Positions 2,959-64,000 of a stretch of 64,000 nt of DNA are shown here, one piece after another. The position numbers and the translations under genes were made by a program. Origin of the DNA: Mobula hypostoma (Eukaryota); assembly GCF_963921235.1 (NCBI RefSeq), contig NC_086097.1:176578001-176642000 (forward strand). Direction: 5' to 3'. Under the pieces are notes generated by a model that was not told the DNA's origin, ran no database searches, and saw only the letters and a program-made list of their open reading frames with translations. Every line of letters begins with the position of its first letter. Within the stretch, counting starts at the first letter, position 1.

Positions 2959-3023
2959 GCCCGGTTAGCTCAGTCAGTAGAGCACGAGACTCTTAATCTC
3001 AGAGTCGTGGGTTCGAGCTTCAC
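2959..3023 (+). pseudogene. tRNA-Lys(CTT) pseudogene or SINE head, lacking the 3' acceptor strand
   Basis: GCCCGGTTAGCTCAGTCAGTAGAGCACGAGACTCTTAATCTCAGAGTCGTGGGTTCGAGC closely matches vertebrate tRNA-Lys-CTT, with the anticodon at 2992-2994. The expected 3' end GTTGGGCG is absent. Confidence 0.88.
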
Positions 3024-3499: not shown

Positions 3500-3716
3500 A
3501 GTAGAATGCAAAGCATAAAAAATACATCTTACAATAAATAAATAGTGCAATAGAGGAGGAGTGAGGTAGTGTTAATGTGTTCATGGGATGTTTAGAAAAC
3601 TGACAGTAGAAAGGAAGAAGCCCTTCCTGAATCATTGAGTGTCAGTTTTCAGGCTCCTGTACCTCCACACTGATGGCAGTAATGAGAAGAATGGCTATCC
3701 CAGATGGTAAGGGACC
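3500..3716 (-). mobile_element. Rex1-type LINE 3' fragment
   Basis: Antisense of the Rex1 ORF end (LPSG.RYRSL.T.TQ..RNSFFP-like region) and 3' UTR. Confidence 0.6.
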
Positions 3717-4767
3717 TCCCATTCCCCCTTTCACCCTTTTATCCAGATCATCTCCCTTCAGCACTCTCAGCCCTGATGCAGGATCTCAACACGAAACATC
3801 GACTATCTCTCTTCCTCCACAGATGTTGCCCCTCTGACTTCCTTCAGAAGTTTGTTTTTAATATGCCACTGGAAAAGCTGTTCTTTTTACCTGCACTGTT
3901 AATTATTGCAAAATCACAATGGTTTTCCTCATTTATCTTAATATGAACGAACCTCTGACAACATCTTTGCTGTAAATAAGTACTTTCCTGTTAGTTCTGA
4001 TACACACAGGGATCAGACTGGAATTTGTACCCTTATGGCCTGGAGAATGCTCTGTTAATCACCCTTAACAGCTCCACATTATGTAAGTAAACTTCACAGC
4101 ATGTCTTTATAATATGCAAGGTAAAATAAATTGGTAAATTAGTTTAATATTGCCACCTGTAAAGAGGTATAGTGCAAAACCTGACATGCATACCATTCAT
4201 ACAGATCAATCCATTACACAGTGCAAGGTAAATAGTCAAACTGAATGCAGAATAAAGTGTTACACTTACAGGGGAGTCCACTGCAGGCAGAGAAAAGGTG
4301 CAAGGCTATAATCAAAGTTCAAAGTTCAAGGTATATTTATTATCAATATATATATGCTATATATGTACAACCTTGAGATTTGTCTTCTTACAGGCAGCCA
4401 CAAAACAAGAAACCCAATAGAGCCCATTAAAAATAACCCACACAACAAAGGCCATCAAACACCCAATGTGTGAAAAAAAACAACTCATGCAACAATACAG
4501 GTAAACAAATAACATTCGGAACATGAACTGCAGAATCCGAGAACGTGAGGCCATAGCCACAAAGGCAGGTCATCGTAGCTTGCAGCCCATCAGCTGTAGG
4601 CCACAGCAACCTTGTGGAGCAGAGATCTGAACACCGGCCCACCCTTTGCCTCCAGCCCCGATGCTCCGATCTTTTCAATCTGGCCCAATACTTAAAGCAG
4701 CAAACAATTCCTCCGGCTCCGCCGCATCTGCTCTCAGGATGAGGCTTTTCATTCTAGGACGAGGGAG

Positions 4768-5508
4768 ATGTCTTCATTTTTTAAAGAAAGGGGCTTCCCT
4801 TCCTCCACTATCAACTCTGCTCTTAAACGCATCTCCCCCATTTCACGTACATCTGCTCTCTCTCCATCCTCCCACCACCCCACTAGGAAAAGGGTTCCCC
4901 TGGTCCTCACCTACCACTCCACCAGCCTCCGGGTCCAACATATTATTCTCCGTAACTTCCGCCACCTCCAACGGGATCCCACCACTAAGCACATCTTTCC
5001 CTCCCCCCCCCCTGCATTCCGCAGGGATCGCTCCCTACACAACTCCCTTGTCCATTCATCCCCCCCATCCCTCCCCACTGATCTCCCTCCTGGCACTTAT
5101 CCGTGTAAGCGGAACAAGTGCTACACATGCCCTTACACTTCCTCCCTTACCACCATTCAGGGCCCCAAACAGTCCTTCCAGGTGAGGCATCACTTCACCT
5201 GTGAGTCGACTGGGGTGATATACTGCGTCCGGTGCTCCCGATGTGGCCTTTTATATATTGGTGAGACCCGACGCAGACTGGGAGACCGCTTTGCTGAACA
5301 TCTACGCTCTGTCCGCCAGAGAAAGCAGGATCTCCCAGTGACCACACATTTTAATTCCACATCCCATTCCCATTCTGAAATGTCTATCCACGGCCTCCTC
5401 TACTGTAAAGATGAAGCCACACTCAGGTTGGAGGAACAACACCTTATATTCCATCTGGGTAGCCTCCAACCTGATGGCATGAACATCGACTTCTCTAACT
5501 TCCGCTAA
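4768..5508 (+). CDS. Penelope-like element C-terminus: RT thumb/linker, Cys-rich finger and GIY-YIG endonuclease (5'-truncated, frame open)
   Basis: Motifs include ERGFP, PLVLTYH, CKRNKCYTC, FTCESTGVIYCVRCSRCGLLYIGETRRRLGDRFAEH, HF...H and E...I..LGSLQPDGMN. Confidence 0.88.
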   Translation: MSSFFKERGFPSSTINSALKRISPISRTSALSPSSHHPTRKRVPLVLTYHSTSLRVQHIILRNFRHLQRDPTTKHIFPSPPPAFRRDRSLHNSLVHSSPPSLPTDLPPGTYPCKRNKCYTCPYTSSLTTIQGPKQSFQVRHHFTCESTGVIYCVRCSRCGLLYIGETRRRLGDRFAEHLRSVRQRKQDLPVTTHFNSTSHSHSEMSIHGLLYCKDEATLRLEEQHLIFHLGSLQPDGMNIDFSNFR

Positions 5509-5800
5509 GGCCCCACCTCCCCCTCGTACCCCATCTGTTACTCATTTTTATACACACATTCTTTCTCTCACTCTCCTTTTTCTCCCTCTGTCCCTCTGAA
5601 TATACCTCTTGCCCATCCTCTGGGTCACCCCCCCCTGTCTTTCTCCCTAGGCCTCCTGTCCCATGATCCTCTCGTATCCCCTTTTGCCTATCAACTGTCC
5701 AGCTCTTGGCTCCATCCCTCCCCCTCCTGTCTTCTCCTATCATTTTGCATCTCCCCCTCCCCCTCCAGCTTTCAAATCCCTTACTCACTCTTCCTTCAGT

Positions 5801-5838
5801 TAGTCCTGACGAAGGGTCTCGGCCTGAAACGTCGACTG
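5801..5838 (+). ncRNA. Minimal type-I hammerhead ribozyme motif
   Basis: Stem I AGTC/GACT, core CTGACGA (5806-5812), stem II GGGT-CTCG-GCCT, GAAA (5826-5829), palindromic ACGT, GTC cleavage triplet ending at 5833. Confidence 0.78.
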
Positions 5839-6885
5839 CGCCTCTTCCTATAGATGCTGCTTGGCCTGCTGCATTCACCAGCAACTTTGATGTATGTTGC
5901 TTGTTCATCACTCTCAGGCCCGGCTCTGCCGCTTTGATCTGGCCTGAAGTCTGCAATGGCCAAACATCGGCTTGTTCCTCACTCTCCGGTGTGGGTCCTA
6001 CCACCTCGATCCGGCCCGCAACTGCACTGCACCTCCAAGATTCCAGTTCACTGAATCCGCCAGAACGCCACAAAAATGCCAGGTCGTACAGATGGTTCAA
6101 AAGCACAGCTCTCAAAGGGAAGTTACAGGTTACTGATGGCAGTGATCATAGTCCATAAAAAGTGTAATTAATAGAGTAGTTAGTAAAGTGCCACTGAGTC
6201 TCATCAGGTCGAGGGTCTATCTGTTTATATTAGTCTTGTACCGGTGGTATTGAAGCTGATCTTGAGCCTGGTGTTACACAATTTCAGGGTTTTTTACCTT
6301 CTGCAAGATGGTGGGGGAGAAGAGGGAGTGTACAGGGTGGCAGGCATCTTTGATTATGTTGGATGCCTTACAGAGGTAATGAAAAAGTGTAGATGGAGTT
6401 GTGAGGGAGTGGGGGAAGGCTGGTTTCTGTGATGTTCTGAACTGTGTCTACAACTCTGTAGTTTCTTGTTGTCACAGGCAGAGCAGTTGCCATACCAAGC
6501 CATTGATGCATCCAGATAGGATGCTTTCTGTAGTGCATTAGTGCATTGGTAATAATTGCTGATGGTCAATGGGGATATGCCAAATTTATTTAGCCTCTTG
6601 AGGAAGTAGAGGCATTGGTGAACTTTCCTGGCCGTACCACCAAGCTGCTTGGGTCAGGGCAAACACTTGGAGATGTTCACTTCTAGGAACTTGAAGATCT
6701 CACCTCTCTTGACTCAGCACCACTGATGTAAACAAGACCATGTGTGCTGCCAGTTTTCCCGAAGTCAATGATCAGCTTGTTTGTTTTGCTGACTTTGAGG
6801 GAAAGATTGTTGTCATGACACCATGTCACTAAGCTCCCCATCTCCTTCCTCAGACTCATTGTTATTTGAGATTTGGCCCACTAAT

Positions 6886-13844: not shown

Positions 13845-14035
13845 CATAAGAGATTTTGCAGATGACAGAAATCTTGAGTGACACATGCAATACGCTTGAG
13901 GAACTCAGCTAGTCAAGCAGCATCTTTGAAAGGAAATAATCAATCGACATTTGGGCCAAAACATTGACTGTTTATTCCCCTTCATCGATACTGCCTGAAT
14001 GGCTGAGTTCCTCCATCATTTTGTGTGTGTTACTG
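13845..14035. mobile_element. Old fold-back Penelope-derived element with collapsed hammerhead core
   Basis: Inverted arms GAGGAACTCAGC...CAGCATC and GATACTGCC...GCTGAGTTCCTC, related to the Penelope 3' repeat. Confidence 0.6.
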
Positions 14036-15165: not shown

Positions 15166-15628
15166 AAGCCACAACACCTTATATTCTGTTTGGGTAGCCT
15201 CCAACCTGATGGCATGAACATTGACTTCTCTAACTTCCACTAATGCCCCACCTCCCCCCTCCCATACCCCATCCGTTATTTATTTATATACACACATTCT
15301 TTTTCTCTCTCTCCTTTTTCTCCCTCTGTCCCTCTCACTATACCCCTTGCCCATCCTCCCCCCTCCCCCTTTTCTTTCTCCCTAGGCCTCCTGTCCCATG
15401 ATCCTCTCATATCCCCTTTGCCAATCACCTGTCCAGCTCTTGGCTCCATCCCTCCCCCTCCTGTCTTCTCCTATCATTTCGGATCTCCCCCCCCCTCCCA
15501 CTTTCAAATCTCTTACTAGCTCTTCCTTCAGTTAGTCCTGACGAAGGGTCTCGGCCCGAAACGTCGACTGTACCTCTTCCTAGAGATGCTGCCTGGCCGG
15601 CTGCGTTCACCAGCAACTTTTATGTGTT
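15166..15628 (+). mobile_element. Penelope-like element 3' end, same family as 4694-5903
   Basis: QHLIF.LGSLQPDGMNIDFSNF* followed by a near-identical CT-rich repeat and hammerhead motif. Confidence 0.9.
15533..15570 (+). ncRNA. Minimal type-I hammerhead ribozyme motif
   Basis: TAGTC-CTGACGA-A-GGGT-CTCG-GCCC-GAAA-C-GTC-GACTG; all core nucleotides present. Confidence 0.8.
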
Positions 15629-16459
15629 TTGTATGGTCAGATGGACTCCGGACCTCACAATCTACCTCATTGTGATATTGCACATCATTGTTTACCTACA
15701 CTGCACTTTCTCTGTATTTGTATTAAGAAACAGAAAGCCTACAGCACAATGCAGGTTCTTCAGCCCACAAAGCTGTGCTGAACATTGTGTTATTGTGTTA
15801 TTGTATCCCCTTGTACTGCCTCAATGTACTGTGTAATGAACTGATCTGTACGAACACAATGCAGGACAAGCTTTTCACAGTATCTTCGTACGTGTGACAA
15901 TAATAAACCAATTTTAATACTAATAAGGTACATTACTCATATCTCATACCCAGACAGAATAAGAACAACAGATTCCAACACCTCCCCTCCCCCTGGAAAG
16001 GTTCTGATGAAATGATGGATCCTTGCAAATTTCAGTAGCTTCACAGTCACCATTAATGATACAGGCTGATTAACTCCAGATTTATCTGATTAACAGGGGA
16101 TTCCCTTTTTCTAGATATGGTGAATGGATTGAATCTTTTGTGTCAGATTTAGTGGAAACCTCTAGGATTGCTAATTCAATCATAAAATTATTGCAATTAA
16201 CACAGAAGGTGGCCATTTGGAATTATACACAGTTCAAATAGAATGTGGCTTTCTAAAGCCACTTTAAGCAAATAATAACATATTTGATAGATTAGCAGAG
16301 GAATCCTGATTACGTTGCACCTGACTGTGGCAATGTTATTATTACATCTTCTTTACCTTCACAATGAGGTAGAAAAGAAATGAGGAAGAAATCAGTTCAC
16401 ACCTAGAAAACAGTAAGCTGAGAGCTCCTGTCACATCTACACTGGGTTTTGTTTTGTTT

Positions 16460-18522: not shown

Positions 18523-19399
18523 ATATATCATGATGAGGCCATAAGGAATTTCAGAGATAGATAAACAAAACCAAGCCTGTCATGAAAACCAGCCTCCTTT
18601 CCACTGATTCTCTCTACACTTTCCATTGCCTCAGTAAACAGCCAATTTATTCAAAGTCACCACTTCCCATGTATCATCTGGCTCAGGCACAACTTGTATC
18701 CTACTGTTTTAGGACCTTTAAACAGACCTCTTGTACAATAAATATAAAATTTGTCTCTCAATCTTCCTATTGTGACCCTTGCATTTTATTTGAGTACCTG
18801 CACTGGATTTTCTCCAAAACTGCAATACTATTCAGATTTGTCTTCTTTTCGTACTACCCTGTTGTACTTATTTATTGTATGGTCTACCTGAATGGCAGGT
18901 AAATAAACCTTTTCATTCCATCTCAGTACATGTGACAATAATAAACAAATTGCCAATAACTACAGCCTGCACTGGTCCCTTTCTGAAAATGCATTTGTGT
19001 CTCTTTTCACTGCCTACAGTGCCATCTCTCCCCTGCTTAAAGTACACCTATGTTCCTGTGAAGCATTCAGTAGCCCTTTACGGATTCCTTCAACAGTACT
19101 GATTAAGAGTCTCAACTCAGATCTGTCCATTTCCCTCCCTCAATGCTGCCTGAGCCATTGAGTTCCTCCAACATTTTGTATGTTGTTACATTTGCTGGAA
19201 CAGGGCTGAAGAAATGATGTACTGTCAGGGTCTCTTCAACGAAATCCAACCCTCCCACCAGCAACTACCCTTCCCTCTCAGATGAGGGCAAGAGTGTCCA
19301 CATTGCCACATCAGAACTCAGTACATTGTGAAACATTCCATAAATAACGTCAGCTCAGGATTAAATGAGTCATTGTTGGGCAGGCAGATGGCTACAAAG

Positions 19400-21239: not shown

Positions 21240-22800
21240 TTATAGAGTCATACAGCATGAAAACAGACCTTTCAGCCCAACTGGTCCATTCAGGCTACTG
21301 TAAGTTAGTCCTATTTGTCTACATTAGACCCACTTCCCTCTAAACCTTTCCCACAAATATTTATGTCCAAGTACATTTTAAATGTTATTAATGTATTTGC
21401 CTCAACCACTTCCTTTGGTGGCTCATTCCATATACTGACCACCCTCCAGGTGAAAAAGTTGCACCTCTACTAAATCTCTTCCTTCTCACCTTAAACCTAT
21501 AGCCTCTTGATCCTGATTTCCCAACAGTGGGAAAAAGACTGTGCACATTGATCCTATCTGTTGCCCTATTAATTTTACACACCTCAATAAGATCACTCCT
21601 CATCTTCCTATGCTCCAATGAATAAAGTCCCAACCTGCTCATCCTCTCTCCATAACTCAGTCCCTTTAGTCCTGACAGCATCCTTGAAAATGTCTGTACT
21701 CTCTTCAGCTTCAAACGTTCATTTATTGTCAAAGTATACAACTCTGAAACTCTTAATGCCACTTAATGGCACCTTTTCTATAGCAGAGTGACCATAACTG
21801 AACAGAATGTTCCAAAAGTGGCCTCACAACATAACTCCAATTTATGTATTCATAAATGAGGACTGATAAATACATGAAAACAGCACACACAAAAAGGTGG
21901 AGGAACTCAGCAGGTCAGGCAGCATCTATGGAAATGAAGTAAGAGTCAATATTTTTGGGCCAGGACTGAAAAGGAAGGGCGAAGATGCTAGAATAAAAAG
22001 GTTGGTGATAGGTGGGGTGGGGAGAACATGAATATCCAGAAGGTAAAAGGTGAAGCCAAGTGAGTGGGAAAGGTAAAGGGCTAAAGAGGAAGGAATAGGA
22101 GAGGAGAATGGATCATGGGAGAAAGGGAAGAAGGACAGGGCACCAGGGGGAGCGGATAGGCAGGTGAAAAGAGGTCAGAGGCCAGACTGGGGAACAGAAG
22201 TAGAGGGAAAGGAGAAAGATAAGAAATACTCAAAGGAGAAATTGGTACTCATGCCATCAGGTTGGAGGCTACCTAGACAGAATATGAGGTGTTGCTACTC
22301 TACCCTGAGTGTGACCTCATCATGGCAAAAGAGAAGGCCATGAGCCAACATGTCAGACTGGGAATGAGAATCGGGATTAAAATGGTTGGCCACCCAGAAT
22401 TTCCGCTTTTGGGAAATGGAGTGGAGGTGCTCAACAAGGCAATCCCCCAGTTTATGTTGTGTCTTACCAATGTAGGGGAGTCTGCATCAGGAGCACCGGA
22501 TATAATAGGCAACCCCCAACAGATTTGTTACCTCGCCTGGAAGGACTTTCTGGGGTCTTGAATGAAGGTAAGGGAGGAGGTTAATGGGCAAGTGATCTGT
22601 TTTCCCAAAATGCAACACTTCACACTTATAAAAGTTTATCTTCATTTGTCATTCCTCAGCCTACTTACCCAGCTGATCAAGATCCCTCTGTAAATCCCTG
22701 GATAACCGTCTTCACTGTAAATGACACCACCTATTTTAGTGTCATTTTCATACTTACTAACCATGCATTGCACATTCTCATCCAAACCAATGATATATGT
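21240..22800 (-). mobile_element. CR1 LINE 3' part, interrupted by a Penelope element
   Basis: RVQ.FSRMLSGLKGLSY.ER.SRLGLYSLE.RKMR.DLIEV (ORF 21388-21762); resumes at 22595-22800. Confidence 0.8.
21880..22592 (-). mobile_element. Older Penelope-like element (decayed GIY-YIG and 3' repeat)
   Basis: Antisense of QHLIF.LGSLQPDGM at about 22250-22295 and the YIG.T region near 22470; GA-rich repeat and degenerate hammerhead region at 21945-21970. Confidence 0.75.
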
Positions 22801-26848: not shown

Positions 26849-27374
26849 GAACATTTCTTTCTGTTTTGTTCCACTACTTACTCCTCCGATGGTAAGAGTG
26901 CCCTCAATCATCTGGAGAGATTGGGTAAACTCAGATTGTTCTCCTTACAGGAGAGATGGTTAAGGGAAGCTTTATTCAAAGTGTTTAATATATTGAGATG
27001 TCCTGCATATAGTATATTTCCCTCCATTCTCTGGATACATGTGCCTATCTAAGAGCAATTATTGCAACTGCCTCACTACTGCCCCTGGCATTGCATTCCA
27101 AGCATACATCGTCTCCTTAGAACTTTTCCCCTCTCACCTTAAATGCATGAAGCGGTTTAGTCTGAGGAACACAGAGCAACACACACAAAATGCTGGAGGA
27201 ACTCACCACGTCAGGCAGCATCTATGGAAAGCAATGAGCCGTTGATGTATTTGGGCCAGGATTTTCAGCATCTGCAGAATCGCTTGTGTTTATGATTTGC
27301 CAACCCAACTATATTCATACACTTTTTCGATGTTTCAATGATATCGCCTCCTATTCTCCTAACTTTTAAAGGAT

Positions 27375-29835
27375 TCATAGAAACCATAGAAAAACTACAG
27401 CACAGAAACAGGCCTTTTGGCCCTTCTTGGTTGTGCCGAACCATTTTCTGCCTAGTCCCACTGACCTGCACACGGAACATATCCCTCCATACACCTCCCA
27501 TCCATATATCTGGCCAATTTATTCTTAAATTTTAAAAAAGAACCCGCATTTACCACCTCGTCTGGCAGCTCGTTCCACACTCCCACCACTCTCTGTGTGA
27601 AGAAGCCCCCCCTATTTTTCCCTTTAAACTTTTCCCCCCTCACCCTTAACCCACGTCCTCTGGTTTTTTTCTCCCCTTGCCTCAGTGGAAAAAGCCTGCT
27701 TGCATTCACTCTATCTATACCCATTATAATTTTATATACCTCCATCAAATCTCCCCTCATTCTTCTACACTCCAGGGAATAAAGTCCTAACCTATTCAAC
27801 CTTTCTCTGTAACTGAGTTTCTCAAGTCCCGGCAACATCCTTGTAAACCTTCTCTGCACTCTTTCAACCTTATTAATGTCCTTCCTGTAATTTGGTGACC
27901 AAAACTGAACACAATACTCCAGACAACAGGAATTCTGCAGATGCTGGAAATTCAAGCAACACACATCAAAGTTGCTGGTGAACGCAGCAGGCCAGGCAGC
28001 ATCTGTAGGAAGAGGTGCAGTCGACGTTTCAGGCCGAGACCAGACGAGGTCCTGACGACTGCACCTCTTCCTACAGATGCTGCCTGGCCCACAATACTCC
28101 AGATTCGGCCTCACCAATGCCTTATACAACCTCATCATAACATTCCAGCTCTTATACTCAATACTTTGACTATAAAGGCCAATGTACCAAAAGCTCTCTT
28201 TACGACCCTGCGACGCCACTTTTAGGGAATTTTGTATTGCATTCCCAGATCCCTCTGTTCTACTGCACTCCTCAGTGCCTTACCATTTACCCAGTATGTT
28301 CTACCTTGGTTTGTCCTTCCAAAGTGCAATACCTCACACTTGTCTGCAATACCTCACACTCCATCTGCCATTTTTCAGCCCATTTTTCCAGCTGGTCCAA
28401 GTCCCTCTGCAAGCTTTGAAAACCTTCCTCACTGTCCACTACACCTCCAATCTTTGTATCATTAGCAAATTTGCTGATCCAATTTACCACATTATCATCC
28501 AGATCATTGATATAGATGACAAATAACAATGGACCCAGCAATGATCCCTGTGGCACACCACTAGTCACAGGCCTCCACTCTTAGAAGCAATTCTCTACTA
28601 CCACTCTTTGGCTTCTTCCATTGAGCCAATGTCTAATCCATTTTACCACCTCTCCATGTATACCTAGCGACTGAATTTTCCTAACTAACCTCCCATGCGG
28701 GACCTTGTCAAAGGCCTTACTGAAGTCCATGTAGACAACATCCACTGCCTTCCCTTCATCCACTTTCCTAGTAACCTCCTCGAAAAACTCCAATAGATTG
28801 GTCAAACCTGACCTACCATGCACAAAGCCATGTTGACTCTCCCAAATAAGTCCCCTGTCTATCCAAATGCTTGTAGATTCTGTCTCTTAGTATTCCCTCC
28901 AATAATTTACCCTCTACCGACTTCAAACTTACCGGCCTATAATTTCCCGGATTACTTTACCATCCTTTTTTAAACAATGGAACAACATGAGCTATTCTCC
29001 AATCCTCTGGCACTTCACCCGTAGACACCGACATTTTAAATATATCTGCGAGGGCCCCTGCAATTTCAACACTAGTCTCCTTCAAGGTCTGAGGGAATAC
29101 CCTGTCAGGTCCTGGGGATTTATCCATTTTAATTTGCCTCAAGGTAGCAAGCACCTCCTCCTTTTCAATCTGTAAAGTTTCCATGATCTCACTACTTGTT
29201 TCCCTTAATTCCATAGACTTCATGCCAGTTTCCTTAGTAAATACAGACACAAAAAAACCATTTAAGATCTCCCTCATTTCTTTTGGTTCCGCACATAGCC
29301 ACCACTCTGATCTTCAAGAGGACAAATTTTATCCCTTACAATCTATTTACTCTTAATATACCTGTAAAAACTCTTTGGATTATCCTTCATTTTGACTGCC
29401 AAGGCAACCTCATGTCTTCTGTTAGCCCTCCTGATTTCCTTCTTAAGTATTTTCTTGCACTTTTTATATTCCTCAAGCACCTTATTTATTCCCTGTTTCC
29501 TATACATGTCATACAACTCTCTCTTCTTCTTTATCAGAGTTCCAATATCCCTTGAGAACCAAGATTCCTTATTCCTATTCACTTTACCTTTAATCCTGAC
29601 AGGAACGTACAAGCTCTGCACTCTCAAAATTTCTCCTTTGAAGGCTTCCCGTTTACCAATCACATCCTTGCCAGAGAACAACCTGTCCCAATCCACGCTT
29701 TTTAGATCCTTTCTCATTTCTTGAAATTTGGCCTTCTTCCATTTCAGAACCTCAACCTATGGACCAGATCTATCCTTGTCCATGATCAAGTTGAAACTAA
29801 TGGTGTTCTGATCACTGGAACCAAAGTGCTTTCCT
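27375..29835 (-). mobile_element. CR1 LINE, about 2.4 kb, relatively young (APE end, RT, 3' UTR)
   Basis: Consecutive ORFs read NPKSFYRYIKSK, KSPGPD, LTNLLEFFEEVT...[37 protein letters not shown]...KFAND and RPNLEYC...FFTQRVV..WN.LP. Confidence 0.95.
27924..28089 (-). mobile_element. 166-bp fold-back Penelope mini-insertion with 14-bp TSD
   Basis: TSD CACAATACTCCAGA at 27910-27923 and 28090-28103. Perfect 34-bp inverted repeat at 27990-28023 and 28056-28089. Sequence matches the 3' repeat at 5815-5903. Confidence 0.9.
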
Positions 29836-30469: not shown

Positions 30470-31210
30470 ACTAAGGCACACACTGTGCATTGCTCGGCCC
30501 AATCAGTAGTATTTGCCACCAGTTTATGAATGGGGATGTCATTTTCACGGACATATTTTTTTAAACTCATTGTAAATATCCTTACCTCTCGTTCTTTCCT
30601 TTAATTGCAAAAGAGTGAGGAAGTCCTCCTTTGTCGTAAAATTCTGGAAGGCCATTCTGACAAATACAGCAAGCTGAGCTGTTTGCATTACATCCAGGGA
30701 TTCATCGAACTGTAGTGAAAAATATTCACGTCCTCTGACAGTGACTCTACCCTCCTTGTCACTGTTGCAGGGCCAAGCAGTATATTATGTATTGCGGTTG
30801 TGATGCTGTTTTTGTTTTTAAAGTCATTAAAAACAGTCTCTGCAGTAATGACCATTGCTTCCTTGAATAAATCGCCATCTGTAAAAGGCTTCTTGTGTTT
30901 AGCCAAAAGATGACTTACACGAAATGATGCTTCAACAGCAGCCTTATTTTGAGCAGCACGTTTTGTGGAAAACCATTGCTGGGCCTTCAACTCCGATTTC
31001 AGCTCAACTTTCCAGGCACGAATTGTGCTCTTTGGGGAATAGATGTCTTTAAATTCCTGGTGGTTGGTGTTGCGGTGCTGCTCCAGATTCCCTCTTTTAA
31101 CCAGTGCTTGTGTTTGATGGCACAACATACATACACACTTGTCTTTCACCAAGGTAAATCGAAATTCCTCTTCCCATTCTGGATGGAATTTGTATGTTTT
31201 CGCCTTCTTT
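30470..31210 (-). pseudogene. hAT transposase N-terminal remnant (GTF2IRD2/EPM2AIP1/SPIN-like)
   Basis: KAKTYKFHPEWEEEF.FTLVKDKCVCMLC...NL.QH..TNH (BED-like finger) and ASFRVSHLLAKHKKPFTDG. After a frameshift, FSLQFDESLD...AQL.VFVR contains the first catalytic Asp. Confidence 0.88.
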
Positions 31211-31640
31211 CGTGGAGCCTTCGCTATGCTATCAGGATATCACGAGCGATTGCCAATTGCGTCGCCTCTGATCTGGGCCGACATTTACGTGCTGGGCAGC
31301 ACCTAATTAATTAGCTTGTTTATTTCAGCTTTTCTTCTTAAAGATTTGCTGGTGCGTCCCGACTACCGCTGTACCCCTGCATGCTTCGTGGCCCAGAGGT
31401 TGGGGACACTGCCGTATATCGATGTTTGCGACAGGCTGTACTCTTATCTAATTGGTCACTTTGATGCAGCACAGGCTACGCTGAAAACGCGGTGCATGGC
31501 GGGGGAGCTACACACACGCGCACTGGGCAGAAAGAACGGAACTAAGCCCCCGCAACCCAGAAACAATCTCTCTTTATAAACAGCTTTTTAGTGAAAATAT
31601 TGCTATATTACCGTTATCATAATTAATATTACTTACTTTT

Positions 31641-33572
31641 TAAAATTAAAAATATTGCGGAACTGGAGCCAAATTTGTAAAGAATACTTAATCACAGGAT
31701 ATAAGTTTAAATTAACAACTTTACCTAATTGCGTAGGTAAAGGAGCCCCCAATAACGAAGTTAAATAATACTGTTTTACAACTTTTAGTTCCAGGTCTAC
31801 CCAAATTGGCCGATCACTCTTATCAACCCAGTATAACCAAAAGGACATGTATCGTGGATTAACAGCCCAGTAATACATTCTAAAATTAGGCAAAGCAAGA
31901 CCTCCATCCTTTTTCAATTTTTGTAGATGACATTTACTAATTCTTGGTCTTTTATTATTCCAAATAAAACATAAAATAATAGAATCAATCCGATCAAAAA
32001 ACTTCCTAGTCAAAAAAACAGGAATATTCTGAAATAAATACAAAAATTTCGGTAGAATCATCATTTTAACTATATGAATACGACCAACAAGTGAAAATGT
32101 AAGTGGACTCCATCTACTAAATAAATACTTCATAGAGTCTACCAAGGGAACAAAATTAGCTTTATAAAGATCCTTATAGATTTTAGTAATTACAATACCT
32201 AAATATCTAAAAGAGTCTGAAACTTTAAAAGGAGTATTATCATATATAGAAACAGAATCATTTAAAGGGAACAATTCACTTTTACTAAAATTAATTTTAT
32301 ATCCTGAAAAACCTCTGAATTCATTAAATAATTTTAACAGGACAGGAATGGATTTGTAGTTTAATTTACCGAAATTACTTTTTTAAGCCTTCTTTGAGTG
32401 ATCCAATGTTTTTACTTTGGAAAAATGAAGGTATTAATTCTTTTTTGGATTTATTTAAAGAAGATAGATTGATGTCCTTTGAACAATTAATTGATAAATA
32501 TTCTCTTTCATACTCACACTTTCTGCAATACCTTCAAGTTAGATATTTTTTACAGAAATATTTAAGTAATTTCCCTTACATATTGGAGGCTGACCTGTTA
32601 GATACTATTATGAGTATGAATCCTTTAATTAAGGGTTCTATTGGAAGAATTTATAATTTACTATTACAATGGGATAAGCGTCCTTTGTCTAAGATTAAAC
32701 AGGATTGGGAAAAGGAACTTAATTTGACTTTTATGGCGGAGGATTGGATGTGGATATTGAAGTTGGTTAACTCTTCTTCAATTTGTGCTAGCCATTCATT
32801 GATTCAATTTAAAATTGTACATCGTTATCATTTGACAAAGGAGAGACTTTCTAAAATCTTTCCTAATGTTGATAGTTGATAGATGTAAAACTGAGATAGC
32901 TACACTGACACATATGTTTTGGTCTTGTTCTATATTGGAACAGTTCTGGAAGTCGGTTTTCTCAACAATTTCTAAAGCACTTAAAATTAATTTACAACCT
33001 AATAAATTAACTGTGCTTTTTGGAATAGTTCCTCAAAATATTTATGATATTTCTGTGTTTGACCAACATGTTATTGCATTTGTTACATTGGTTGCTAGGA
33101 GGACCATTTTGTTGAAGTGGAAGGATACATCAGCTCCCACTTTGTCACAATGGTTCTCTCAAGTGATGCTATGTCTTAGTTTGGAGAAAATTAGAAGTCG
33201 AACCTTTGAACCTTTATTTGATTTTGAGAAAAGATGGGGCTCATTTGCTCGCTATTATCATTTGAGTTAATTGATATAATTTTTCCATGATCTAATTGTA
33301 AATTCTTTTAGTATATTTTCTTTTCTTGCTGGCGGTTTAAAGTTTATTTTTAGAAGCTTTTTGTATGACGCGTGGCTCCGGGGTTGTACACCTAATGAGT
33401 TCTCTTTTTTTTCTCACTTTTCTGCTCAGTAGGTTTTTTTTTTGTTATCACAAAATTTTGTTTTCAGTCTTTAAGATGATGGTTTTTTTTGAGGCATTGT
33501 AAGTGTTGTTACTTCGATGTACTCATGTTATTTTTCCTATATATACAATAAAAAGATTTGAAAAGAAAGAAG
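31641..33572 (+). mobile_element. L1-clade LINE, 5'-truncated, with twin-priming inversion (31641-32351 inverted) and 14-bp TSD
   Basis: Minus part: FSGYKINFSKS...FRYLGI...GRIHIVKMMILPKFLYLFQ...GGLALPNF..YYWA. Plus part: IQFKIVHR...RC......LTHMFWSC. AATAAA at 33547-33552 and an A-rich tail. TSD TATTACTTACTTTT at 31627-31640 and 33573-33586. Confidence 0.93.
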
Positions 33573-37614: not shown

Positions 37615-38250
37615 ATTGGTATTGGTATTGCTATCAGTTTATTATTGTAACCTGTACCAATAATAAAATGAAATGCTTTTGTTTGCATGCCATCAAGACA
37701 GATGATTGCATACATAAGCACATTGAGATAGTAACAGATGGTAGCATATAGTCACAAGACAGATGATACAAGAGATTCTGCATAGGATGAATCTCTTGAG
37801 GATCACTTTGCATTTTGTGTGTGTTGGAGAAAATAGTGTTACAGTTATAGAGAAAGTGTAGTGCAGGTAGACAAATCAGGTGCGAGAGCATTAACAGATG
37901 AAGTATGAGAGCTCCTGCTTTAGTGTACGAGGGGTCCATTCGAGTGTCTGATAACAGTCGGGTAGTTGCCCTTGAGCTACGTGCGCTCAAGCTTTTGCAC
38001 TTTTTGCCCATGGAGGCAGTGAGAAGAGAGTATGATTAGAGGTGCTTAACATTCTCCAAAGGTAGTGGGAAGTTTAGATAAAGCTAATGGAGGAGAGATA
38101 GATTTGTGTGATGGACTAGGTTGTGATCACAGCTCTCTGCAATTTTTTGTGGTCTTGGGCAGAACAGTTGATGTACCAAACTGTGATGCTTCTATACATC
38201 TGGATAGAATGCCTTCTATGGTTCATTTATAAAAACTAGTGATGTTCACA
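37615..38250 (-). mobile_element. Rex1-type 3' fragment
   Basis: Antisense Rex1 3' UTR with (CAATAC)n tail. Confidence 0.65.
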
Positions 38251-38357
38251 AGTCCTACTAAAGGATCCATCTGAATGTAAAAAAAACTTGATGCTGAGAG
38301 TGTTGCCCTGGGTGAGACATCGATAATGGCTTGCTTGTCCTTCCAATACATTTTGAA

Positions 38358-38631
38358 CTCAAAATAATCTGCAGATGCTGGGATCAAAGCAACACTCACA
38401 ACACGCTGGACGAACTCAGCAGGTTGGGCAGTATCCGTGGGCCGGAACCCTTCGTCAGGACTGAAGAGGGAAGGGGCAGAGGCCCTATAGAGGCCCACCC
38501 TCCCCCACCTTCTTAATAGGGCCTCTTCCCCTTCCCTCTTCAGTCCTGACGAAGGGTTCCGGCCCGAAACGTCGACTCATCATTTCCACGGATGCTGCCC
38601 GACCTGCTGAGTTCATCCAGCATGTTGTGAG
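38358..38631. mobile_element. 274-bp fold-back Penelope mini-element with 13-bp TSD
   Basis: Long inverted arms. TSD AATA[C/G]ATTTTGAA at 38345-38357 and 38632-38644. Confidence 0.85.
38542..38577 (+). ncRNA. Minimal type-I hammerhead ribozyme motif
   Basis: AGTC-CTGACGA-A-GGGT-TCCG-GCCC-GAAA-C-GTC-GACT. The antisense partner at 38439-38463 lacks the GAAAC half. Confidence 0.8.
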
Positions 38632-39971
38632 AATAGATTTTGAAGATTTTAGGCAGTGGTACGAAAATTAAAGGACATAGATTTGAAGTGACAGGGGTAA
38701 AATAGACTTAGGGAAGAACATTTTCACACAGAGGGCAGTGGGTATATGAAATGAACTGCCAATCTGTATTTGGGCAGATACATAGATAGGATAGGTCATT
38801 CAGCCAAATGGTACTAGCTCAGTTAAGCACCTTGGTCATCATGGACAAGTTAAACTGAATGCCTATTTATGTGCTGTACAACTTTCACACTTCATGTCAT
38901 GGTCTAGAGAGAAGATATTACACTGGCTGAAACCTGACATGTTCACGTTAAAATGAAAGTAGTGGATACTGTAATGTGGAAATAACTGATCACAATAGTC
39001 AGCTTTGAAGTTAGATTGTGTTTATTTGAATGCAAAAAGCATTTAATAAACTTGCACAGCCAGGAACATTAGCAATAAATAACAGCTTATTCAGCAGAGT
39101 CTGCAATAGTTATTTTGCACCATATTACCAATTCCACTTTGAGCATGCTAACATGCATAAAGTTCTGCAGTAATATTTCAAGAAAGGTCATTTATGCTTC
39201 AAAACATCTCATTCTGAAAAGGTCAACCAATTAATTTGCAGGCACACCAGAGTTAAGATGTGGGATGCAGGAGATTAAATGTGGCTTTTATGGATCATGG
39301 GAGACGTAAATAAGAAAGGATGGCACCTGTCCCTATGGCAGATGGATCCCTAAATGAGGTACAAGTCTAAAGCAATAGATCCTGTGACCCAGAGTGTGTT
39401 GTTTCATTGCTGATGCAATGGTGGTTGTCAAACTTCCCCAGCAGCAGGCTGTATGGAATCTGTCCAGGAGGTGTGCGACAATGACAGTGCTGGAAGGTTA
39501 CTCCAGGTCTCTAAATATGAAATGATAGCTGAAAAGAAATGATAAGAAGACTTGCATTTGTGCAGTGCACAGAATTAAAGGGCACTGGTGAACATTGTTG
39601 ATCACCTGTTTTGTGAAAGATATCAGAATCACGTTTATTATCAACGACAAACATTGTGAAATTTGCTGATGTAAAAAATTACTAAAAATTTAACGATGAA
39701 AATAAATAAATAAATACTATAAAAGAGGAATAGTGAGGTAGTGTTCATGGACCATTCAGAAATCTGACGGCCGAGTGGAAGAAGCCATTCCTAAAAAATA
39801 GAGTCTGGGTCTCCTGTACCTCCTCTAGGTGTTGACTATGATGTCAGTTTAAACTAATCACATCTACCTGCATGTGGAGATAAAAGGTTCAGGGAAATCT
39901 ATGTAAGCAAATTGGAGCAAGTCTTATTAGAATTAAAATTGGTTTATTACTGTCACATGTACCGAGATACA

Positions 39972-40749: not shown

Positions 40750-42107
40750 GATACAGTGAAAATCTCATTTGGCAGATTAATAGACTACAACAGTACATTG
40801 AGGTAGAACAATAACTGAAAGCAGAACGGTTACAGAGAAAGTGCAGTGCAGGTAGACAACAAGGTCCAACATCATAACTTATGACTGTGTGGTCAAGAGT
40901 ACATCTTATCATAGCAGGGATGGGAGAAGCGAGAAGTGGGAATGTCTGGGATTGGAGGGGTGGTGGGGTGAGGGGGAGGATCTTTGGTTCTGTAGGCTGC
41001 TTTAACAAGGCAGTTGGAAGTGTAGGTAGTGTCCGAAGGGTGGCTGGTTTCTGTAATGTGCTTATCTGTGTCCACAGCTCTCTACAATTTCTTGCAATTT
41101 CCTGCCGTATCAAGCCACGATGCGTCTGCATAGGATTTTCTCAGTGGAGCATCGATAAAAATTGGTAAGGGTTAACGGGGACATGCTGAATTTCTTTAGC
41201 CTCTTGAGGAAGTTGTGGCATTGGTGAACATTTTTGGCTATGGTGTTACATGGTGTCAAGAAGGAGGGGGTCTTAAGTGTCATAGGAGGCATACAGATTG
41301 ATTATTTTCACGACGCAGAGCGTAACGGCACTGATTATTTGTTGTCAAGTGATCAGAAATAAGGTCATTTCTACCATAGCTGTTGCCAAGTGGACTAGCA
41401 CTGTCCTGGGACTAATCAGCTTTGGAGGTAAAGAGATTGCAGTAAAACAGCAATCATGGCTGATCATTCAGGATGGTAACAGGTTGAACTACCAAGATTT
41501 CCACCTGGGACTGAATGGGCCAATCATTTCTGGTTTCTCAGAACATAAGTAGTTTTGCACATAATCATTAACATTAAGTTAATGAAGTAACCTGCTACGA
41601 TGTCTTTACAAGTGTTCATCAGGCTTTTGGACAGGCACATGAACAGATAGAGAAGGGAATTATGTGGATCATGTGCTGGCAGAAGGGATTTTGTTTTATT
41701 TGATATTGTGTTTATATGGATTGAACGGCCTGTTCCATGTTCTATGTTCTACATTCCAGGTCAACAGCTTAAGTAAAGACACAGTTTACTGAATACAATA
41801 GCATTATTGGATCGCAAATAAGCTCTGATGGAGGGTATTTGGTCTGAAATATTATTTGTTTTGCTTTTCACGGATGTTGCCTGACATGAGTTTTTCCAGA
41901 ACTTTCTATTTTTATTTCAATATAATTAAATTCTTATTTGTAATTACCTGCTAATTTAAGTGGGTAACTCAAGAAGATGGCAGTGAGCTTAATTAATGTC
42001 ATTGCTCAGTACAACAGTGTGCTTTTCTGCAAGAATGGGAGCTATTGATAGAGTAGAAAGCCGGTATCTTTTGTCCATGGTGGAAATATCAAACACTGGA
42101 GGACATA

Positions 42108-49094: not shown

Positions 49095-50115
49095 CCCAGA
49101 GAATGTAATGTTATCTACCAGTGTAGTGTGATGTCCATTGGCAGTGGGAGAACAAAATGAAAACAGGCAAATGTGAGGGGAAGGAGTGAAACAAGAACTT
49201 GCAGATGATGGGTGGATCGAGGTGAGGAAGGTTGATAAACAGATGGAGGAAGGGAGAGTAGGAATGGTGACAGAAGCTCGGAGGTAATAGGTGCAAGTGG
49301 CAAAGGCTGCAGATGGTGGAAATCTAATTTTTCCTGCACAGTCTACAACCCGATGGCATGAACATTGAATTCTCCAATTTTAGGTCAACAGCTTCCTTTT
49401 TCTTTCCCTCCTTGACTACCCAGTTCCTCCCACACCCACCTCAACTTTCATCACTCTGCTTCTTTCCACTCTCCACCCACTCCATCTTCCTCTCCTATTA
49501 CTTCCCATTATCTGCAGATCGCAGAGAAGATGCGAGGAGGTTGTGGGGACTGAAGGGCCTAAGTTATAGGGAAAGGTTAGCCAGGTTAGGTTTTTTCTCA
49601 TTGAGACATAGGAAAAGAGGGGCAAACTTACAGCCATGTTTAAAATTATGAGAAGCATAGGTAAAATGGTTGGTAACTGTCTTTTCCCCAGGTACGGGAG
49701 TCCAAAGCTAGGGGCATAGATTTAGGGTGAGAACAGAAAGATTCAAGTAGGACTTGATTGGCACCCGTTTTCACCCAGAGTGGTAAGTGTACGGACTAGC
49801 TACCAGAGGAAGTGGTTGAGACAGGTACAATAGTATCATTTAAAAAGCACTTAGATATGTACATGGAGGGGAGAGGCTTGGAGGGAAATGGGCAAGAAAT
49901 TCAGACTAGCTGGATGGACAATGCATTTGGCAGGGACTTGTTGGGCTGAAGGGCCTGTAGCAAAGCCATGTTGCTATTTAATCTAAGACTCTATGAAGAC
50001 AGGTGAGATGTCTCAACCGAAATCAGCAGGAGTTCATTTCCTACCACAAATCCTGACCTGTTAGGTTCTTCCAACACTTTATGTGTTGCTCCAGATACCA
50101 GCATCTGCCATCTCT
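49095..50115. mobile_element. Old Penelope element with inverted 5' arm, interrupted by a plus-strand CR1 (49520-49995)
   Basis: LQPDGMNIEFSNF at 49340-49385; GA-rich arm on the left and CT-rich arm on the right; Penelope tail CCAGCATCTGC near 50100. Confidence 0.6.
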
Positions 50116-60961: not shown

Positions 60962-61168
60962 ACCAAGAGACCTGCAGATACTGAAATCTGGAGCAACAGA
61001 AATAAAGCTGGAAAAGCTCAGGAGGTCACGAGCATCTGTGGGTGGGGGAGAATGAATTGTTAATGTTTCAGGTTGAAACTCTGCATCAGAATTAATTCTC
61101 TAACAGTCCAGATGAAGTGTCTGAACTCAAAACATCAGCTATCTGTTTCCTCCTCATGGATGGTGCTA
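60962..61168. mobile_element. Old fold-back Penelope-derived element
   Basis: CTGCAGATACTG.AATCTGGAGCAAC arm and an opposing CAGTCCAGATGAAG...AAAC degenerate hammerhead arm. Confidence 0.55.
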
Positions 61169-61169
61169 G

Positions 61170-64000
61170 AGTGAGCAGTCAGATGTCTTGGTACATATTG
61201 GCACCAATGGCATAGGTAGGAAAGGTCCTAAAAAGAGATTTTAGTGTGCTAGGTAGAAAGCTGGAAAGGAGCACCACCAGGGTAGTAATCTCTGAGTTGC
61301 TGTCTGTACCGTGTACCAGTGAGGGTCAGAATAAAATGATTAAGCAGCTGAATGCGTGGCTGAGTAACTGGTGCAGGGGGCAGGGAACCAGATTTCTGGA
61401 TCCCTGGGATCTCTGCTGGAGAAGGTATGACTTGTACAAAAGAGATGGGTTACACCTGAACCAAAGGACGGACCAATATCCTTTTGGGCAGGATGCTAGA
61501 GCTGTTTGAGAGGGTTTAAACTAATTTGGCAAGGGCGATTGGAACCAGAGTGATAGGGCTAAGGATGGGGTAACCTGTTCACGAACAGAGGCAGTATGTA
61601 GTGAGACTGCTAGCGAGGAGAGGCTGATGATAGGGCAAAATTGCTGTCAATGGAACAAGTTGCAATGAAAAAGGGGAGCAACCACATAAAGAGTGATGAA
61701 TACAGGATTGAAGGTGTTATAGTTGAATGCAAGCGGTATATGGAATAAGGTAGATGAACTTGCAGAACAGTCACAGATTGGCATGTACGATATTGTGGGC
61801 ATTACCAAGTTGTGGCTGAAAGAAGATTATAGCTGGGAGCTTAACATCCAAGGATACACATTATATCAAAAGGACAGGCAGATAGGTAGAGGGTGGTTCT
61901 GTAGCTCTGTTAGTAAAGATTGAAATAGGATTATTATAAATAGGAGACATAGGATCAGAAAGTGTAGAATCTTTGTGGTTAGAGCTAAAAAACTGAAAGG
62001 GTAAAAAGACCCTAACGGGAGTTATATACAGATCTCTGAACAGTAGGAATTCATGGAGGACTTCAAATTGCAGGTAGATTGGGAAAATCTGGTTGGTGCT
62101 GGATCTCCAGAGGGAGAATTTGTAGAAATGAGATGGCTTTTTAGAGCAGATCATGTTCGAGCCCACTAGGGGATCAGCTATTCTGGGGTGGGTGTTGTGG
62201 AATGAACTGGAGTTGATTAGAGAGCTAAAGGTAAAGGAACCCTTAGAAGTCAGTGATCATAATATGATAGAATTCATCTGGCAATTTGAGATGGAAAAGC
62301 TGAAGTCAGATTTTACATTTATTAAAATGGAGTAATGGAAATCAGAGGCATGAGAGAGGAGCTGACTAAAATTGATTGGAGGGGAACACTAGCAGGGATG
62401 ATGGCAGAGAAGCAATGGCTGGAATTTCTGGGAGCAATTCGGAAAGCACAGGATAGATAAATCCCAAAGAAGAAGAGTATTCTAAAGGCAAGATAACGCA
62501 ACTGTGACTGACAAGAGAAGTCAAAGGCAACATAAAAGCTAAAGAGAGGCAAAAATTAGTCTGGCATTAGAGAATTGGTAAGCTTTTAAAAACCAACAGA
62601 AGGCAACTAAAAGAAGTCATAAAGAAGGAAAAAGTGGAATATGAAGTTCAGCTAACCAATTATAGTAAAGAGGATACCAAAGTTTCTTCAGATATATAAG
62701 TACAAAAGAGAGGCTACAGTGGATATCAGACCACTGGAAAATGATGCTGTAGAGGTAGCAATGGAGTTCAAGGAAATAGCGGTGGAACTGAATAAGTATT
62801 TTACATCTGTCTTCACTGTGAAAGACATTACAGCATGCCAGAAGTTTGGGAGTGTCAGGGGATGGAAGTTTGAGATTGTCAGGGGACAGAAGTTAGTAAA
62901 GTTACCATTATTAGGGAGAAGGTGCTTGGGAAACTGAAAGATTCAAAGATAGATAAGTCACATGGACCAGATGCTCTAAACCCCAGGGTTCTGAAAGAGG
63001 CAGCTGAAAGATCGTGGAAGCATTAGAAATGATCTTGCAAGAATTATTGCTTTCTCGCATGGTTTCAGAGGACAGGAAAATTTCAAATCTCACTCTACTT
63101 TTCAAGAAGGGAGATAAGCAGAAGAAAGGAATTATAGGCCTGTTAGTCTGACCTGAGTGGTTGGGAAGGTGTTGGTGTCAATTGCCAAGGATGTGGTTTT
63201 GGGGTACTTGAAGGGATATGATAAAATAGGCCAAAGTCTGCATTGAATTGATGGCTTTTTGGCCAAGTTTGTGGATAATGTGAAGATAGGTGGAGGGGCA
63301 GATAGTGTTGAGGAAGCAGAGAGGCTACAGAAGGACTGAGACAGATTAGGAGAATGGGCAAAGAAGTGGCAGAAAGAATACAGTGTAGGGAAAAGTATCT
63401 CCATGTACTTTGGTAGAAGTAAAAGTGTAGGCTATTTTCTAAATAGAGAGAAAATTCAAAAACCTGAGGTGCAAAGGGACTTGAGGGTTCTCATGCAGGA
63501 TTCCCTAAAGGTTAATGTACAGGTTGAGTCAGTGATGAAGAAGGCAAATGCAATGTTAGCATTCATTTTGAGGGGACTAGAAAATAAAAGCAAGGATATA
63601 AGGTTGAGGCTTTATAAAGCATTGGTGATGCTTAGAGTATTGTGAGCAGTTTGGGGCCCCTTATCTAAGGTAGGACATGCTAACATTGGAGGGCGTTCAA
63701 AGCAGGTTCACGAAAATGATTCCAGGATCGAAAGGTTTATCATATGCTGAACATTTGTTGGCTCTGGTCCTGTACTCACTGTAATTCAGAAGAATGAGAG
63801 GGGATCTCATTGAAAGGCCTTGATAGAGTGGACGTGGAGAAGATCTTTCCTGTGGTGGGGGAGTCTAAGACCAGAGGACACAGCCTCAGAATATAGTGAC
63901 ATCCATTTAGAATGGAGATGAGGAGGAATTTCTTTGGTCAGAGAATGGTAAATCTGTGGAATTTGTTGCCACAGGTGACTATGGAGGCCAAGTCATTGGG
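61170..64000 (+). mobile_element. Long decayed CR1 LINE: ORF1 SGNH-esterase remnant, APE endonuclease and RT with internal deletion; runs off the window
   Basis: Esterase: HIGTN...VVISELL.VP...LNAWL..WC...RDGLHLN. APE: NASGIWNKVDEL...DIVGITK.WL, PTRG.AIL..VL and SDHNMIEF. RT and C-terminal motifs follow. Confidence 0.92.

Follow-up and report, generated by a model that had tools for sequence, protein, structure and literature searches.

A 274-bp fold-back in Mobula hypostoma as a probable truncated and inverted Penelope-like insertion

The 274-bp element at positions 38358-38631 of a 64,000-nucleotide stretch of the Mobula hypostoma genome (hereafter the window) is very probably a single, abortive insertion of an endonuclease-positive (Neptune-type) Penelope-like retrotransposon (PLE) that was dead on arrival. 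Its architecture is already known, namely that of an ordinary Penelope insertion with extreme 5′ truncation and inversion. Both arms are the last 130-140 bases of a Penelope-like pLTR, placed head-to-head, with the tail on one of them. The preliminary description had left two readings side by side. One of them, repeated extreme 5′ truncation of a PLE with inversion, is supported by the GIY-YIG-linked pLTR, the target-site duplication (TSD), the one-sided tail and the differing junctions. A non-autonomous, retrozyme-like family is disfavored by the lack of tandem same-strand hammerheads, by a motif sequestered by its antisense copy and again by the differing junctions. The parts of the insertion are as follows.

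38345-38357, plus strand: left TSD copy, 13 bp, AT-rich, recognized by its flank match (a match of this quality at like spacing, with a slack of ±5, occurs at 42 of 200,000 random window positions)
38358-38394, minus strand: 37-bp Penelope tail, on the left arm only, the distal 3′ end of the family, as judged from contig exits and the one-sided tail in PMC8557442
38395-38489, minus strand: left arm, a 5′-truncated pLTR end in antisense, starting about 30 bp before the hammerhead core
38490-38493, no strand: junction with 4 extra bases, occurring once in the window
38494-38631, plus strand: right arm, a 5′-truncated pLTR end in sense and without tail, starting 52 bp upstream of the hammerhead core
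38542-38577, plus strand: minimal type I hammerhead that lacks helix III, has a bulged base behind the core and a palindromic 15.2-16.2, following the motif definition of PMC4209133
38632-38644, plus strand: right TSD copy; a contig of run X9 starts matching exactly at 38632

Self-alignment of the insertion to its reverse complement pairs 38395-38488 (minus) with 38516-38563 and 38586-38631 (plus). The arms are identical at 89 of 94 aligned bases, and 22 bp are extra in the right arm only. Three of the five mismatches are CpG-type transitions, and the insertion is therefore slightly aged. Long arms had been reported earlier and are present, although the wording "almost entirely" inverted repeat slightly overstates them: 188 of the 274 bases are paired, and the 37-bp left tail, the 27-bp center (38489-38515) and the 22-bp loop-out are unpaired. 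The flanking 13-mers, 38345-38357 and 38632-38644, agree at 12 of 13 positions, which confirms a 274-bp element with a 13-bp TSD carrying one mismatch. The tail at the left end only fits the 30-40-bp one-sided Penelope tail, and at 38356 a total of 180 contigs of run X1 pass from the element into dissimilar sequence (agreement 0.37). A MITE has terminal inverted repeats running to both ends; here the left end is formed by the tail, which the repeat does not include.

The predicted fold of 38345-38644 reaches −201.9 kcal/mol (z −20.9), a value equaled in 0 of 200 shuffles, and the rod-like hairpin proposed for a transcript holds as a predicted structure. A microRNA precursor was considered and rejected: the 10 miRNA-family matches of an Rfam scan all fall below the gathering threshold (for example 55 versus 78 bits), as a generic hairpin would give. 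In the search for a host gene, a Pfam scan of 137 of the 164 window open frames of at least 75 aa, with six more scanned separately and the remaining ones omitted as evident repeat frames, returned transposon-type or sub-threshold matches only.

The hammerhead of the right arm consists of stem I (38542-38545/38574-38577), the core (38546-38552), a bulged A, helix II (38554-38565) and GAAA (38566-38569), with the cut site inferred after 38573. Stem I has 4 bp and helix II 3 bp, and the GAAA and CGUC leave no room for a helix III. On the minus strand the motif (38464-38441) retains the 5′ side of stem I, the core and part of helix II; a 22-bp deletion in the left arm, with 2-bp microhomology, has removed the GAAA and the cut site. 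The claim of a hammerhead sequence on both strands is thus borne out as an intact plus and a deleted minus copy, with "complete" applying only in the sense of the minimal type without helix III. No hammerhead family matched at E ≤ 1 when the window was scanned with Rfam.

Forcing the hammerhead fold is predicted to cost 41.9 kcal/mol in the fold-back versus 5.4 in the right arm alone, and the core bases of the fold-back have a predicted pairing probability above 0.998. According to PMC4209133, a minimal hammerhead from a PLE pLTR needs a second copy on the same strand; a lone motif did not cleave, and dimers cleaved little. The element studied here has no same-strand partner, its second copy being antisense and devoid of GAAA and cut site. 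The hammerhead is a passenger from the pLTR; on the folding model it would be held in the hairpin of a transcript, unable to cut.

These features bear on the possibility of a retrozyme-like element that self-cleaves, circularizes and spreads via circular RNA, a reading to which we give almost no credence. Animal non-LTR retrozymes (PMC7229834; bioRxiv 10.64898/2026.07.22.740005) are likewise small, protein-free and related to PLE pLTRs, with a type I hammerhead; the bioRxiv study derives them from such pLTRs and records them in one chondrichthyan, and the present element, at about 270 bp and without an ORF, resembles them. However, retrozymes repeat in direct tandem, each unit having a working hammerhead and at least two consecutive units a complete one, and they make circular RNAs, whereas here the copies are inverted, one is broken, and the single intact motif is of the minimal kind that did not cleave alone and is sequestered by pairing of its core. 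A hammerhead motif together with a rod-like fold should therefore not be equated with a retrozyme. Separately, contigs of organism C (run X9) contain a joint from 38577 back to 38543, that is, a 35-base hammerhead unit repeated head-to-tail. Such a unit could form a dimeric ribozyme and offers a lead for true mini-retrozymes of the family.

The source of the arms is found elsewhere in the window, where the hammerhead and its surroundings recur at 5806 and 15538 on the plus strand. Two longer copies link this sequence to a protein.

4696-5905, plus strand: 5′-truncated Penelope-like copy of a sister subfamily, encoding the C-terminal 270 aa with CX4CxxC and GIY-YIG, followed by a pLTR with the same hammerhead at 5806-5829
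21874-22614, minus strand: old 5′-truncated copy of a subfamily nearer the fold-back, a GIY-YIG remnant followed by the same pLTR end

The presence of the same pLTR and hammerhead behind the GIY-YIG ORFs of both copies identifies the arms as the 3′ end of a PLE pLTR. The arms are about 78-80% alike to the sister-subfamily pLTR (5509-5905). The 270-aa ORF preceding it (4696-5508) matches Pfam GIY-YIG above the cut-off (E 7e-5) and has 31 longer homologues, including shark proteins at 61% and 55%; relatives of about 900 aa carry RVT_1 and GIY-YIG (P0018, P0027). The copy at 21874-22614 is recovered by tblastn at 59-61% identity (E 1e-26), and at the DNA level it aligns along the right arm from end to end, also upstream of the hammerhead. 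A CX4CxxC linker lies at residues 137-145 of the ORF (4696-5505) and is kept in most aligned relatives. A CX2-5CxxC linker before a C-terminal GIY-YIG is a mark of Neptune and Nematis elements (PMC8557442); the assignment to Neptune is read from the sister-subfamily ORF, by a motif shared with Nematis, in a window that holds no RT core of the family. The C-terminus of an annotated shark protein (P0001) reads through the pLTR and ends in a translated hammerhead-region peptide, a sign of the same motif after the ORF in another species. The window holds more fragments of these Penelope-like families, each in one orientation, at 15171-15631, 3715-3855, 19085-19194, 41865-41899 and 49292-49384. A search of the copies at 4.7k, 15k and 22k for an inverted piece at the 5′ end found none.

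The window contains three other fold-backs, the last of them probable.

13848-14034, no strand: older fold-back with the tail on the left, as at 38358; junction at about +10/+15 of the hammerhead core
27924-28089, no strand: young fold-back of the sister subfamily, absent from the preliminary description; perfect 14-bp TSD, junction at about +9/−4
60962-61168, no strand: probable fold-back of great age; its left arm and tail are clear, its right arm is marginal

The first, which had been placed at 13845-14035, is clear: its arms (13877-13945 and 13966-14034) align with a score of 53 versus a shuffle maximum of 27. The second lies within a LINE that we take to be CR1-type, and its flanks align to overlapping, consecutive parts of another copy of that LINE; with the perfect TSD, this gives independent support that the Penelope-like family makes such target duplications. 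It has no whole hammerhead, since the left arm is truncated inside helix II, and in the right arm a deletion ends within 2 bases of the cut site. Both young fold-backs, at 38k and 28k, carry a hammerhead deletion in one arm. The third, at 60962-61168, had been listed as an older example and is sustained in part: its arms each match the family in opposite orientation (the right arm marginally, at 32-33 versus shuffle maxima of 28-30), but they do not align to each other above shuffles. TSDs were also sought around the 13k and 61k fold-backs and the two longer PLE copies, with nothing convincing. The tail-less arms at 28048-28089 and 61098-61167 stop at about +55 to +60 of the core versus +85 at 38k, and the tail-less end is therefore not fixed. 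At 27165-27291 an antisense pLTR end is followed by a sense tail only, whose match is marginal (26 versus a shuffle maximum of 24); by its layout this is probably a fifth fold-back.

Could the inverted arrangement have arisen at the DNA level, or in two events, with a second truncated copy landing beside the first or a fold-back repair following insertion? The junction bases and their neighbors duplicate 8 bases of the left arm (38478-38485 = 38489-38496), so that 38490-38493 looks like a templated, microhomology join, and both this junction and the deletion in the left arm resemble end-joining repair. The family is also dense, with at least 8 fragments in 64 kb. Against this, one TSD surrounds both arms, as it does at 27924-28089, and the asymmetry of tail and no tail recurs in the window fold-backs and in the literature. 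The near identity of the arms extends to letters at 38558-38559 that both share and that are missing from about 60% of the family depth, as would be expected of a single template. We regard a DNA-level or two-event origin as highly improbable.

A further alternative is a fold-back family that is non-autonomous and multiplies as one unit, its transcribed hairpin RNA being copied in trans by a Penelope RT/GIY-YIG protein via the tail end. This was approached through the junctions, in the window and in contigs of four of 24 public runs, X1 and X22 (organism A), X5 (organism B) and X9 (organism C), aligned to 38050-38950 at 85% likeness. Relative to the core, the break points are −30/−52 (38k), +10/+15 (13k), +9/−4 (28k) and about 0/−7 (61k), all four different, and the 38k junction occurs once within the 64-kb window. 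Among the 15 joints listed of 92, 11 run arm-to-arm, left to right; all lie at different places, with 1-3 contigs each and anchors of only 20-30 letters. Bridging letters are known in 7 of the 11 (3-29 long, all different), and the other 4 contain unknown letters. Outside this count are two "opposite strand" joints, one tandem joint and one in the flank; the "opposite strand" joints are read as ordinary one-orientation copies. None of the 31 records listed, beside 56,374 pieces outside the listing, crosses 38489-38494. A copy sharing the 38k junction yields no joint, and because the element's own junction contig is also not among the records listed, short shared-junction contigs could be missed.

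Two further readings of the contigs were set aside. A right-hand cluster of joints at 38540-38553 was considered as a hot spot and rejected, since other subfamilies begin to resemble the reference there (loose ends at 38542). The depth of the bin 38484-38514 (101,317 in X1) was rejected as a junction copy number, since arm sequence lies on both sides of the bin.

The contigs also continue past both truncation points, 16 from X5 behind 38489 and 11 from X9 before 38502, and both arms are therefore truncations of a longer sequence. The summed depth over the arms in X1 is 1-2.3 million versus about 12 on the unique flank, which is not a copy number; the Penelope pLTR family is very abundant. Two X9 arm-to-arm joints have depths of 38.5 and 46.7 versus 2.7-6.5 on the unique flank, depth again not being copy number, and the joint 38382-38543 is present in two species, so that some junctions may be multi-copy. 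The 11 arm-to-arm joints listed are other head-to-head insertions with other junctions, and the result leans clearly to independent events, though a minority of repeated junctions may exist. Whether many loci share a central junction near 38488 was the check proposed earlier; the window and the listed contigs of the four runs lean to differing junctions.

A replicating unit would draw some support from the retained tail and RT start region, from the abundance of the arm sequence and from the few X9 joints at several times flank depth. pLTRs alone sufficed for trans mobilization in a rotifer (PMC3846280), and hammerhead cutting is dispensable for insertion in vitro (PMC11167929). It is nevertheless a distinctly unlikely explanation: the four window fold-backs and the 11 listed joints all differ, no listed record spans the 38k junction, family members extend past both truncation points into upstream pLTR that the element does not have, and a 94-bp duplex would presumably obstruct the template. 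Among the very numerous hairpin insertions of this Penelope family in cartilaginous fishes, some could be source copies re-mobilized as palindromic units, or the mass of hairpins could be a genome-wide dsRNA source that silences the parent element; taken together we think this rather unlikely.

Organism B carries the insertion, since contigs of its run X5 cross both element ends (38050-38385 and 38602-38950). In run X9 a contig breaks off at 38352 and a second begins to match at exactly 38632, after 20 letters, with an implied overlap of 28 where 30 is expected; these ends are only suggestive of an empty site in organism C. Of the contigs of run X22, which is only guessed to be RNA, 3,143 lie on the repeat arms, with a single joint between arms, and the unique flank 38236-38328 has none; the run is uninformative for or against transcription of the locus.

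An abortive Penelope-like insertion could have formed as follows. The RT/GIY-YIG protein of a full-length copy would nick an AT-rich site on both strands, with 13 bases between the nicks. From each of them cDNA would be primed on the same RNA region, once from a distal start, including the tail, and once from a proximal start, without it. Both cDNAs would stop early, and a short microhomology join with templated bases would unite their ends. Loss of 22 bp from the left arm and decay of CpGs would have followed. A precedent exists in the Poseidon protein, which nicks and extends both strands at AT-rich DNA in vitro; two RT start sites bound the tail, and hammerhead cutting was not needed for insertion (PMC11167929). 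The two-nick mechanism is that of the Poseidon element in vitro and is applied to Neptune and to the inversions here by analogy. For palindromic junctions, PMC3846280 proposes self-priming on an antisense template. The offset, templated junction at 38k would fit self-priming less well, and the near-palindromic 13.9k junction would fit it better.

The insertion has close counterparts among known elements. PLE insertions include an inverted 5′-truncated copy and a 30-40-bp one-sided tail (PMC8557442), and rotifer copies have 8-10-bp TSDs and a 31-bp tail with inverted pLTRs (PMC3846280). Compared with these canonical complex insertions of endonuclease-positive PLEs (PMC8557442; PMC3846280), the element shares the head-to-head copy, the tail at one end, the TSD at an AT-rich site and the pLTR hammerhead. 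It differs only in degree, with copies of 130-140 bp, no ORF and the whole insert forming a hairpin; the window fold-backs have TSDs of 13-14 bp versus the rotifer 8-10 bp (PMC3846280). In Schistosoma, truncated PLEs bear two minimal hammerheads 100-700 bp from each other, one per strand (PMC4209133). The present element has the same motif type (bulged base, palindromic core, no helix III) on opposite strands, with cores about 90 bp apart, but lies in a host that the protein homologues suggest is of cartilaginous-fish type, and has a deletion in one copy. In Drosophila, inverted-repeat copies of Penelope are siRNA sources (PMC3681739), and the long duplex of the putative transcript is a shared feature. 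Among the papers listed on palindromic or miniature Penelope elements of cartilaginous fish, none treats such an element as far as the listing shows, and on Penelope hammerheads in sharks only a review was listed; Repbase and Dfam lay outside that search, and a named shark family may exist.

On its own the insertion has little import, since it only adds another truncated copy to a Penelope-like family. It does show the inverted-copy-plus-tail structure in clean and compact form. In so abundant a family, a tally of junctions, TSD lengths and ends could test the inversion mechanism, and the population of junctions and of arms with and without tails would constitute a large natural data set for comparing the two-nick and self-priming models.

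Several other features of the window were observed. On the minus strand, 30691-31239 contains a frame with a weak Spin-doc zinc-finger match below the cut-off, presumably a DNA transposase remnant. Positions 2966-3023 (plus) give a partial Rfam tRNA match (31.2 versus a threshold of 29 bits) that we take to be a SINE head. A GDSL esterase-like frame at 61216-61506 (plus), also below the cut-off, starts directly after the 61k fold-back and is presumably ORF1 of the LINE that hosts it. Finally, 31636-33270 contains long non-LTR-type coding fragments on both strands, facing apart, with no Pfam match.
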